A stretch of DNA of 48,622 bases, taken from contig CAVVNJ010000001.1 in NCBI GenBank assembly GCA_963749595.1, positions 67,376 to 115,997 of the forward strand, written 5' to 3'. The number at the start of each line of letters is the position of its first letter. The first letter of the stretch is position 1. This document shows positions 4,735 to 7,635 of this stretch, one piece after another. Under the pieces are notes generated by a model that saw only the letters and a list, made by a program, of their open reading frames with translations, searched no databases and was not told the origin of the DNA. This DNA comes from Candidatus Woesebacteria bacterium (GTDB taxonomy: Bacteria > Patescibacteriota > Microgenomatia > UBA1400 > UBA1396). A program made the translations under genes and the position numbers.

Positions 4735-5044
4735 TCCCCTGTAGCTCAATGGCAGAGCATTCGGCTGTTAACAGTAATGTCCGGCAGCGCTTACCAGAAA
4801 TGGCAAGCTGAACAAGTGGGTGAATTGCGGGAACCCTTCGCGAAAGCATGGTAATCCGCAGCCAAGCTTCGATTGAAAGATCGAGGAAGGTTCAGAGACT
4901 AGGTGATTACACCCGATCTCCGCGCAAGCGGAGTGGAGCGCCCACCACCTACGTTCGAGCAATCGAATATGGTGAAGAGATAGTCCATACCGGCGGGAAA
5001 CCGTTGGAGAATATGTAACCGAAGGGTTGTAGGTTCGAGTCCTA
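4735..5044 (+). tRNA. tRNA-Asn(GTT), positions 1-64, intron-containing; acceptor 3' strand missing at this locus
   Basis: Exon 1 4735-4768 TCCCCTGTAGCTCAATGGCAGAGCATTCGGCTGT; exon 2 5016-5044 TAACCGAAGGGTTGTAGGTTCGAGTCCTA. Spliced anticodon arm TTCGG-CTGTTAA-CCGAA; T-arm GTAGG-TTCGAGT-CCTA. Confidence 0.92.
4769..5015 (+). ncRNA. Group I intron (IC-like core, no ORF) in the tRNA-Asn anticodon, position 35/36
   Basis: P AATTGCGGGAA 4823-4833, Q AATCCGCAGCCAAG 4853-4866, R GTTCAGAGACTA 4890-4901, S AAGAGATAGTCC 4975-4986. P7 GACTA/TAGTC. P1 exon GCUGU pairs with GCAGC with a U.G at the 5' splice site. P9 CCGGCGG-GAAA-CCGTTGG. Terminal G at 5015. Confidence 0.93.
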
Positions 5045-6049
5045 AGCGACTTGGGACTCTAGCTCACTGGTATCAACATAGGTTCCGCCGCCACAACTTT
5101 TGCAGAAATATAAAGAGTATTCTTTATCTGAGTTTTGGTGCTTCTCTCCCCAAAAACGCGAACCGCAATCGCTGCAAAATAGGAAACCGCGTAGAAGAAA
5201 GTTGTGCTTGCGACTGCGCGATCCACCTTGGTTGTGGGCCAAAATAACCCTCTGCACCTGTGCAAATAGATCTTGAGAAATTAGCGGTTTGTGTTTACCG
5301 GCATATTCAACACTTTTCCAACGAAAGCGACCGACGTAGAAAGGATTACCCAGCGTCCGCTCGATCAAGCTCTGATGTATCTTGCCACCAGTTGGGGATT
5401 TAATCCCTTTTTCATTAAGAAAATCTGCCAGATCTGCCATCGTGTAACGTCCAGAGGCATACATTTTGAATATCTCTCGTACTAGGCTGCCAATTTCCGG
5501 CTGAACGAAAATTATCCGTCGGTCCAGAGTAGAGAAGGGCTCAGGATTATCGCCATTACGATATCCTAGCGGGGGAGTTCCGCCGGGAAACCAGCCGATC
5601 TGAGCCTTTTGCTCCATAACTTTACTAGTTTTACGTCCGGTAATTTGCGATTGAAAAGCGTTGGTCGCTGCTAACAAAGTATCAACAAGATTTCCCTCTG
5701 GGCTATCGTCAATAATCGGCTGACTGACGGAAATTACTTGCGTACCATTTTTGCGCAGAATCGCTTTGATTTGCAGGTGATCGATCGTATTCCTAGCCAG
5801 GCGGTCGGTATCTTGAACCAGCACAGCGTCAATTTTCGGCTCTTTTGCCTGGACTTTGACCAATAGATCTTGTAAAGCGGGGCGGTTCATATTGGTAGCT
5901 GATTTGCCCTCATCGACAAAGGTTGAAACAATCTCAATACCATTATCCTGGGCGTACTTTTGGCAGATCCGCAATTGCGATTCGATACTCTGGCCTTCCT
6001 TGGCCTGTTCCTCCGTCGATACCCGCGCATAGATCAAGCCCGCCCTCAC
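5042..6049 (-). pseudogene. Large serine recombinase A, C-terminally truncated after the Zn ribbon (335 aa)
   Basis: IYARVSTEEQ catalytic Ser motif, DTDRLARN, recombinase domain (GNPFYVGRF), Zn ribbon CSDC...CKSC, then an abrupt stop. The TAG is the reverse complement of tRNA bases CTA 5042-5044. GGAGGT RBS before the GTG start. Confidence 0.85.
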
Positions 6050-6252
6050 TCTGCACCTCCTAGCCCGTGTCTGAGCGCGTCCAAGACTTGCTCGCGAGAA
6101 TATTGACGGTCCCCACGTGTACCAATAGGGGTAGCTTTGAATATACCGGCCCTATCCCAGCGTCGAAGGGTGGTCGTGGTAACCCCCAAAAGCCTCGCTA
6201 CTTGGCCAATACGCAACTTCTCTGGCATGATAGTTGTCTTTTTTCCTGGCAT
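6046..6252 (-). CDS. MerR-type / excisionase-like HTH DNA-binding protein
   Basis: LRIGQVARLLGVTTTTLRRWDRAG...GDRQYS; stop overlaps the recombinase GTG start (GTGA). Confidence 0.8.
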   Translation of the reverse strand: MPGKKTTIMPEKLRIGQVARLLGVTTTTLRRWDRAGIFKATPIGTRGDRQYSREQVLDALRHGLGGAE

Positions 6253-6296
6253 GATGTATAAGTTATACCACATGAGATGAAAATGGAAATAGCAAA

Positions 6297-7001
6297 ATGA
6301 AAATCAAATATTTTTCTGTACAAGCTGAGCCACGCAAGGGTCTACCGGATAAATTTACTTGGATCGAGGAAGAGGCTAGCGCTGTCGATGTTCATCCAGA
6401 AGCCCGCGCGTTTCTATTCGCCCTATCCAGGAATCAGGAATTTGAGAAGGATATTATCCAGTGGCGAGCAGAAGCGGGAATTCCAGAAAGTGGCTTTAAT
6501 TTTAATTCAGGGGACAGGTCAGGATGTAACTGGAGCACCATTGTTGCCGCCTCGAGATCCCTTGATGCGAAATATAGTTTCCTTCAATATCTATCATCTA
6601 GACATATCCTGCTATATAACGGGGTGCTGCTACCCGTCCAACCAATCGAACTCGAAGCTGATTACGACCATCAAACAGGCCTGATGGATGGCACAGAAAA
6701 AGGGGAAGTTCGGATCATCATTAGGTCACAAATAACGAAGCATGCCCTAGTAACATTTATTGAGAAAAACTGGGAAGTCATAGAAAAAAAACTTGCAATT
6801 GCTTCGCGATTAGACCGATCTACTGTCACAGATAGGGATATGCAAATCGTCACTTTAAGGGAAGATAGCGATCTAACTTTTAATCAAATTCGGAAACAGC
6901 TTGCTGATTCAGGCGAAGTTTCTTCAGCAATGACAGAGGACGCAATCAAACAGGCCTACTACCGTACAAAAGAAAAGATTACGCAAATAAATCAAGCGTA
7001 A
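6297..7001 (+). CDS. Hypothetical protein with a probable C-terminal HTH
   Basis: 234-aa ORF ending in RDMQIVTLRE..LTFNQIRKQL...TEDAIKQAYYR, resembling a sigma region 4-like HTH. Confidence 0.55.
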   Translation: MKIKYFSVQAEPRKGLPDKFTWIEEEASAVDVHPEARAFLFALSRNQEFEKDIIQWRAEAGIPESGFNFNSGDRSGCNWSTIVAASRSLDAKYSFLQYLSSRHILLYNGVLLPVQPIELEADYDHQTGLMDGTEKGEVRIIIRSQITKHALVTFIEKNWEVIEKKLAIASRLDRSTVTDRDMQIVTLREDSDLTFNQIRKQLADSGEVSSAMTEDAIKQAYYRTKEKITQINQA

Positions 7002-7109
7002 CAATCCGATAGGGCATCACCCGTAACCCCATCCCCTTCTCACTTACAAGTTATCCACTTCATCGTTAAATCAGGCTAAAAACTGTCATACGTATTTTGT
7101 CAATTAATC

Positions 7110-7568
7110 ATGAATTCTATTTCTGAAGAGTCAGTAAAGAATTATAGAAAGTTTTTGGATCCTCAAAGTAATGTTGGACGAAATTTCCATTTCGAAATAT
7201 TAGTATTAGAAATTTTTCTTACCACACGTGCGTTTGAGATAGCCATAACTGATAACCGAGATGAACTATTAGACAAGATACACAGCATTATCTATCATCA
7301 GGCATGTAAAACTCCCGAAGAAATCGACACTTTTATCGAATTACTTAATGAAAGATATATACAATACCGAGAAACTCTTGACAAGGCATTTGAGGTGTCC
7401 GATCGAGAGGGTTTTGCTCTGTTATCCCTTGGAAATAGATTCGCCGGAAATATTGTCGGAGAGGATAAAGCACGCGGTGGATTATCCAGCTTTGTCGCTG
7501 CTAGATCCGGCCAACACCTTAAACTTTATCTTGATCTTCTTAATAGGAAAGACCAGATTCCAGGGTAA
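7110..7568 (+). CDS. Hypothetical protein
   Basis: 152-aa ORF filling the gap between neighbours; no motif recognised. Confidence 0.55.
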   Translation: MNSISEESVKNYRKFLDPQSNVGRNFHFEILVLEIFLTTRAFEIAITDNRDELLDKIHSIIYHQACKTPEEIDTFIELLNERYIQYRETLDKAFEVSDREGFALLSLGNRFAGNIVGEDKARGGLSSFVAARSGQHLKLYLDLLNRKDQIPG

Positions 7569-7619
7569 ACGCGCTACTCATGAAGTAGTCCGTCAGCCAT
7601 TGTATAATTCGAGTACTAA

Positions 7620-7635
7620 CCTCCCGGGGGAGCCA
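7620..7635 (+). other. Displaced tRNA-Asn 3' end (att junction)
   Basis: CCTCCCGGGGGAGCCA: CGGGGGA pairs with the tRNA 5' strand TCCCCTG (one G.U), followed by discriminator G and CCA. Differs from the expected T-stem at position 64 (C instead of A). Confidence 0.85.

Follow-up and report, generated by a model that had tools for sequence, protein, structure and literature searches.

Phage-type large serine integrases, such as those of Listeria A118 (LI), phiC31 and Bxb1 and the SprA integrase of SPbeta, carry resolvase, recombinase and zinc-ribbon/coiled-coil domains, are accompanied by a small helix-turn-helix (HTH) partner gene, and integrate unidirectionally, leaving the attachment sites attL and attR. 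The inner (recombinase domain, RD) part of the attP and attB arms of serine integrases is alike, and the zinc-ribbon domain (ZD) motif lies 5 bp further from the centre in attP (PMC3783163). Islands and prophages with P4-like tyrosine integrases enter the 3' part of tRNA genes without loss of tRNA function, and several can sit in tandem at one tRNA; integration of SSV1-type archaeal elements into a tRNA gene partitions the integrase gene. In the B. subtilis skin element (SpoIVCA) in sigK, SPbeta in spsM and the Anabaena fdxN element (XisF), precise excision rebuilds an essential or developmental gene. Here, we analyzed a 48.6-kb stretch of DNA (48,622 nt; hereafter the window) from a Candidatus Woesebacteria bacterium, in which the tRNA-Asn gene stops short at the edge of element A, an island with a truncated large serine recombinase gene (LSR#1). 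The window is the final part of contig C1 of a metagenome-assembled genome (MAG; G000) of 12 contigs and 1.16 Mb, with a completeness of 83.5% and a contamination of 1.25%; genomes of relatives are about 1 Mb. A sequence-only reading of the window had proposed that integration of element A split the tRNA at its T-arm, and had offered a second tRNA-Asn copy, excision of element A as a DNA-level switch, or a defective or chimeric haplotype as explanations. We found that the last of these fits best: probably, three large serine recombinase (LSR) islands stacked up at the tRNA-Asn gene, and a loss of about 0.5 kb then removed the tail of LSR#1 together with tRNA positions 65-76.

The tRNA-Asn(GTT) gene follows dnaG, rpoD and a PNPOx-like gene, and the order dnaG-rpoD-tRNA-Asn is common to the window and G001, a genome of the same genus. 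Exon 1 (4735-4768, plus strand; positions 1-35) is 100% identical to the tRNA-Asn of G001 and is followed by a 247-nt group I intron (4769-5015, plus strand; Rfam RF00028, 76.4 bits, E 9e-18) between anticodon positions 35 and 36. Exon 2 (5016-5044, plus strand) ends at A64, where positions 65-76 are missing, and the bases after A64 are unable to form an acceptor stem. ARAGORN called no tRNA in the window, nor in the spliced sequence as present. The sequence-only reading was right that the gene is cut at A64 and not restored. The tRNA-Asn of G001, which lacks an intron and whose exons are all 100% identical to those of the window, ends in ...GTAGGTTCGAGTCCTAC-CGGGGGA-G-CCA (also given as CCTAC-CGGGGGA-G-CCA). 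Its last 12 nt occur exactly at 7624-7635 of the window (CCGGGGGAGCCA), where a tRNA 3' end had been noticed and which is the sole match in the window at up to one mismatch; the downstream flank of the G001 gene is not present in the window. When the pieces were joined in silico, a flush join (5044|7624) gave a perfect tRNA-Asn and a join through a CT core gave a U50.C64 mismatch, both as had been predicted. Removal of the intron rebuilds the anticodon loop, and the spliced construct was called as tRNA-Asn(GTT) once the 3' end was added. A second exact copy of CCGGGGGAGCCA lies within unrelated sequence at C1:38068-38079, and this chance copy makes the 12-nt match alone weak evidence in a 1.2-Mb genome. 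On the other hand, the context of 7624-7635 is not due to chance: a T-loop look-alike (TTCGAGTaCTA) stands at 7608-7618, and in the related genome G027 an intact tRNA-Asn is joined to a recombinase gene through the same GAGCCA|GATGGGACGC sequence.

Comparison with related genomes gave a uniform picture. At all 11 related loci (L015, L016, G019, G167, G080, G161, G061, G004, L053, G027 and G015, the last by coordinates only), a full-length recombinase gene is convergent with an intact tRNA-Asn gene and overlaps it or lies no more than about 13 nt from its 3' end; three of these tRNA genes (G004, L053 and G027) bear an intron. In the relatives, the acceptor strand and T stem, read in antisense, supply the last codons of the recombinase (...G/W-L-P-x-stop). 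In the window, by contrast, tRNA and recombinase are both truncated at a shared junction.

LSR#1 (5042-6049, minus strand) is the large serine recombinase of element A, cut at residue 335 of about 500, as judged from Pfam domains, homologue lengths and a profile. It carries the Resolvase (PF00239, E 3e-33) and Recombinase (PF07508, E 5e-17) domains, covers the first 52 of the 58 positions of the zinc-ribbon model and ends inside the zinc ribbon, short of a complete zinc ribbon with coiled-coil. Its stop codon, TAG, is the tRNA's own CTA at positions 62-64. Against a profile of four homologues, positions 2-336 of 502 align and tRNA sequence then begins, and the remaining gene is clean, with no frameshifts. 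The best homologues, which public records name as Roizmanbacteria, Cerribacteria and Patescibacteria, measure 480-552 aa in 118 of 120 cases and extend about 170 aa past the end of LSR#1; the missing third corresponds in them to a charged, helical stretch after the zinc ribbon. One short homologue (P0063, 330 aa) diverges about 9 residues before this point, where its contig also ends, so that it is uninformative. We searched all of G000 and the six frames of 4600-9300 for the C-terminal third, and it is absent, which rules out an SSV1-like large split of LSR#1 with the remainder at the far end. Since a coiled-coil deletion mutant of the LI integrase has no activity on any site pairing (PMC3783163), the truncated LSR#1 is presumably inactive.

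The far end of element A shows where members of this group are likely to cross over. In its attR (7608-7635, plus strand), a T-loop mimic displaced outward by 5 bp (TTCGAGTAC) is followed by the inner arm CCTCC-CGGGGGA, whose position 64 is C, and by GCCA. TTCGAGT and CGGGGGA are 10 nt apart in this attR and 5 nt apart in the tRNA, so the distal ZD motif sits 5 bp further out, in agreement with the attP/attB rule (PMC3783163). In the attR of G167, 11 nt separate GTAGGTTTCGGAT from CGGGGAGCCA, against 6 nt in its own tRNA, and in that of G004, 11 nt separate TTCGGAT from GGGGGAGC, again against 6 nt in the tRNA, followed by the remnant of an older recombinase 3' end. The +5 spacing was thus found in three of the four attR sites examined; a search for attR in L015, L016, G019 and G061 found none within the flanks examined. 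The acceptor strand in the attR of G167 and G004 is identical to the tRNA, and the inner T-stem part of the G004 arm differs from it. This mismatch means that the arm is element DNA, with the crossover in or after GGGGGAGC. From the layout shared by element A, G167 and G004, we infer a crossover near the 3' tip of the acceptor strand and not at 64/65; given a spacing like that of LI, positions 72-73 of the tRNA would be at its centre. The tRNA-like sequence at 7608-7635 thus appears to be mostly element A's own tRNA-mimicking attachment arm, and the fragment would have C at position 64 (7623) because that base belongs to the arm. What the sequence-only reading took for the 3' end of the gene, 2.6 kb away, would largely be this arm. 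Older attR scars in G004 (L045; 16575-16640) and G161 (L049; 2232-2275) keep about 25 nt of an earlier recombinase 3' end (CTTATCCGAAC / ACTTACACGAA) beside a tRNA-like fragment, and look like the footprints of earlier residents of these stacks.

The two junctions of element A do not match each other as products of one integration should. With G001 as the reference, attL(A) matches the native tRNA up to position 64 and departs at 65, and attR(A) departs at 64 and matches from 65. CCT is common to both junctions. No 2-bp core fits both of them, and attL and attR share no usable dinucleotide. Since there is no common core, no single 2-bp crossover by integration made the left junction. We therefore do not uphold the proposal that integration split the tRNA at its T-arm; the attR layouts, too, place the crossover near the 3' tip. 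Since the recombinase is also truncated, a two-step history is the simplest. We considered a deletion made by a recombinase between attL and a pseudo-site in the gene, and found no shared core that fits (AG, TA and CT, checked by eye).

Elements B and C lie beyond element A and extend the stack. LSR#2 of element B (7540-9211, minus strand; identified by Pfam and by profile alignment across two frames) carries resolvase and recombinase domains and is split by one extra base near 8385, with its zinc-ribbon/coiled-coil part in the second frame. Its end is antisense to the tRNA-like 3' end (...WLPR). In G027, an LSR#2-type gene follows the intact tRNA-Asn across GAGCCA|GATGGGACGC, as at window 7630-7645, which indicates that element B is a normal neighbour of an intact tRNA. 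The attL of element B (7630-7635) and its attR (20262-20274, plus strand; ...TTTCTC-GAGCCA) share only GAGCCA, which puts the crossover of element B at the extreme tip of the tRNA, and here a common core exists. Element C is the C-terminal remnant of a third recombinase (20173-20508, minus strand), which ends ...AWL at GAGCCA and was recognized by a weak colinear match to the tail of LSR#2 (E 0.002). Tandem stacking with a tRNA-like arm at the far end is thus seen in attR(A), attR(B) and remnant C, and such arrays often hold decayed recombinases and remnants of earlier stacks (G161, L053, LSR#2 and remnant C).

Together, these findings suggest the following history. In this order of ultra-small bacteria of the Patescibacteria (candidate phyla radiation, CPR) type, tRNA-Asn is the landing site of a group of LSR islands, which normally insert near the 3' tip of the tRNA with the recombinase gene convergent at the element's edge and the tRNA intact. 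Measured against this layout, the contig is about 0.5 kb short at attL(A). Three islands would make up the stack in the window: A, from 5045 to about 7631, as the youngest; B, at about 7632-20270; and C, of which a remnant is left. In a first step, element A would have integrated at the tip of a tRNA that stayed whole, with LSR#1 at full length. In a second step, about 0.5 kb would have been lost at attL(A), including tRNA positions 65-76 and LSR#1 codons 336 to about 505 with the coiled-coil and the rest of the zinc ribbon, all of which would formerly have been present at this site. That LSR#1 was once longer is supported independently by a public contig, described below, in which its frame runs past the break. 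As a result, element A would be locked in and this tRNA-Asn copy dead.

Several observations count against this history. Between them, the two tRNA pieces (1-64 and 65-76) make up the gene with neither gap nor overlap, as a simple insertion would give, and under a deletion this is a coincidence of about 1 in 12. The loss is in frame and ends exactly at TAG. The attR of G161, the fourth of those examined, has no +5 spacing. For the longer public contig described below, the evidence consists of its gene frames. Finally, a cell that loses a single-copy tRNA-Asn should not survive, so that such a loss would be a strange consensus for an assembly. For the broken junction, which is known here from the assembled sequence of one MAG contig, the candidates are a haplotype in the minority, a copy that is complemented (the assembly lacks 16.5% of the genome) and an assembly error.

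One possibility, which we consider unlikely but worth serious attention, is that the junction is an artefact: the real chromosome would carry a full-length LSR#1 overlapping an intact tRNA-Asn, and about 0.5 kb would have been dropped by the assembler or in binning. This account shares its structure with the deletion and differs from it only on whether the junction exists in cells. A 2,237-bp Logan contig from run ERR12037366 encodes a protein identical to the 234-aa product of 6297-7001 and, on the minus strand, a gene that begins at the LSR#1 start (at a 248-nt offset, as in the window) and has no stop in the 415 codons up to where the contig ends, so that its frame passes the break by at least 80 codons. 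In the window, stop codons in the LSR#1 frame occur at 5042-5044 and again about 30 codons on; the Logan contig must therefore differ from the window left of 5045. Another contig of the same run ends inside the 5' exon of the tRNA. That a lethal deletion should not dominate a population, and that the genome is a 12-contig MAG, would also fit an artefact. However, the junction lacks any repeat long enough to mislead an assembler, its sides having just GAGTCC (6 nt) in common, and apart from its truncation the gene is clean, with no frameshifts. No duplicate or alternative-haplotype contig of the tRNA region was found within G000.

It is also possible, and in our view rather doubtful, that the broken gene is a tolerated pseudogene, neutral because another working tRNA-Asn gene is carried by a different replicon or by the 16.5% of the genome that is not assembled. 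This is compatible with a deletion at the edge of element A. ARAGORN on the whole assembly found no tRNA-Phe and no tRNA-Glu(UUC), so the tRNA set of the contigs is incomplete, consistent with the completeness of 83.5%, and essential tRNAs other than Asn are missing as well. However, we found no further tRNA-Asn in the 12 contigs by intron-aware ARAGORN, RF00005 and exact-string searches, in line with what the sequence-only reading had supposed of this gene, and no other group I intron in the 1.16 Mb, 4769-5015 being the only RF00028 match. All seven relatives of family f1 that were searched have exactly one match to the tRNA-Asn D-arm/anticodon pattern (the eighth, G008, fell below the completeness filter), and G001 has its syntenic copy only; tRNA-Asn is thus single-copy in the relatives. 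A 26-mer of exon 2 proved not to be specific, as it is common to the tRNA-Asn genes of Acidobacteria and others. Several of the ARAGORN "intron" tRNAs in G000 have introns of 800-2000 nt and seem to be spurious.

An excision switch is unlikely to operate here. Under this reading, which we rate as very improbable, element A entered the gene at the T-arm and left it unrestored, and tRNA-Asn is rebuilt when 5045-7623 is excised site-specifically; it would imply an empty-site junction GAGTCCTA/CCGGGGGAGCCA and a circular 5045-7623 molecule. The reciprocal pieces, the perfect tRNA after a flush join, the CCT at both junctions and the single tRNA-Asn copy of relatives all speak for it. On the other hand, LSR#1 is truncated before the coiled-coil that LI needs on all pairings (PMC3783163), the P' half of attL is gone, the neighbouring LSR#2 is frameshifted, and no 2-bp core fits the native sequence, a CT core leading to the mismatch described above. 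The intact tRNA and full-length recombinase at every related locus, as well as the longer LSR#1 allele in the Logan contig, also contradict it. A variant, in which this split gene is the only tRNA-Asn of the strain and is rebuilt in some chromosomes or cells by a recombinase acting in trans, e.g., from another element that targets tRNA-Asn, seems to us highly improbable; if true, a mobile element would be turning an essential tRNA on and off at the level of DNA. Rescue at the RNA level, with the AGCGA-CTTGGGA that follows A64 as a substitute acceptor strand or with the 3' piece pairing in trans, is scarcely credible: CTTGGGA could pair with five of the seven acceptor bases, but with two internal mismatches, a bulge of 4-5 nt and a G49.A65 mismatch, ARAGORN gave a blank on the spliced sequence as present, and we know of no bacterial precedent.

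Apart from LSR#1, element A carries three further genes or open reading frames (ORFs). A MerR/excisionase-like HTH gene (6046-6273, minus strand; Pfam MerR and HTH_17, PHROG excisionase-like) overlaps the start of LSR#1. The same pair of HTH and recombinase genes is conserved in L015, L016 and L053, and the HTH product is a candidate partner (directionality factor) of LSR#1. Divergent from it lies a 234-aa gene (6297-7001, plus strand) with weak similarity (E 4e-5) to the gene at the same position in L016, followed by a 152-aa ORF (7110-7568, plus strand; from the ORF list) that has no family matches and no assigned function. No protein on record was identical to the product of the HTH gene, of the 152-aa ORF or of the N-terminal part of LSR#2. 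By frame arithmetic, about 30 codons (7540-7631, minus strand) continue the LSR#1 frame over the junction of the circle; they would form the tail that completes the recombinase in the excised form, and in the present DNA they extend LSR#2. The extra base of LSR#2 lies at CTCTTTCAG (window 8380-8390), and because this is not a long homopolymer, the frameshift is probably real rather than a sequencing error.

The cargo of element B (7636-20270) includes an alpha/beta hydrolase, an Ldh_2 dehydrogenase, an aldo/keto reductase, YecM, an AAA ATPase, a subtilase and a DUF559 endonuclease-like gene, and its GC content is 35-44%, compared to about 51% in the flanks. A third recombinase had been hinted at 12581-13997 by an inverted repeat (I1); this region actually encodes the aldo/keto reductase, followed by YecM. 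Beyond the stack, a 3,224-aa ORF (38319-47993, minus strand) contains an internal repeat in four copies of about 1.64 kb each, 60-80% alike. Contig C12:6-5517 is 85% identical to window 43112-48622 and appears to be a paralogue or strain variant of the window end, which is also the contig end.

Two further observations concern the tRNA-Asn gene itself. The group I intron is present in G000 and lacking in G001 despite 100% identical exons, which looks like a recent gain or loss, and tRNA-Asn introns also occur in the related genomes G027, G029, G016, G004 and L053. Several tRNA-Asn genes that adjoin recombinases have a G.U wobble in the acceptor stem, at 6:67 in G161, G000 and G001 (window 4740/7626) and at 4:69 in G061 and L015. 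One strand of such stems could have been supplied or overwritten by element DNA; G001 has the 6:67 wobble without any element.

These results bear on how mobile elements at tRNA genes are read. An attachment arm that mimics a tRNA can pass for the displaced end of the gene, and a "split essential gene" should not be called from one MAG contig. From the three attR sites in which the T-loop mimic is shifted by +5 comes a specific model, open to testing, of tRNA gene recognition by these enzymes. In ultra-small bacteria, insertion at the tRNA tip, a role usual for tyrosine integrases, falls to serine integrases, with an integrase gene that runs across its own attachment site and with stacks of islands in which the older recombinases decay. 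Our literature search found nothing that links serine recombinases, tRNA-Asn and Patescibacteria.

Compared with the known systems, the tRNA-Asn group shares with the phage-type integrases of A118/LI, phiC31, Bxb1 and SPbeta the domain set, the small HTH partner gene, the distal motif 5 bp further out in attP than in attB, and unidirectional integration that leaves attL and attR. Unlike these integrases, which target ORFs, it targets the 3' tip of a tRNA; its recombinase gene crosses attP, so that the last ~30 codons change on integration, and the LSR#1 copy is truncated and presumably inactive. With P4-like islands and prophages it shares the 3' part of a tRNA gene as target, a tRNA that stays functional and the possibility of tandem stacking, but the enzyme family and chemistry differ, and the tRNA look-alike is predicted to be a protein-binding arm with a 5-bp shift and not a long exact direct repeat. 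SSV1-type integration likewise partitions the integrase gene, but SSV1 uses an archaeal tyrosine recombinase and a large split, whereas normal members here displace only a C-terminal tail of ~30 codons. The skin, SPbeta and fdxN elements correspond to the switch that the sequence-only reading had envisaged; in them the recombinase is intact and attL and attR match around a common core, whereas element A has a truncated recombinase, lacks one att half and has no workable core, and only a coreless flush join restores the tRNA. By domain content, the enzymes at this locus are ordinary large serine integrases, whose variant features are the tRNA-tip target, the gene that crosses attP and the stacking of islands.

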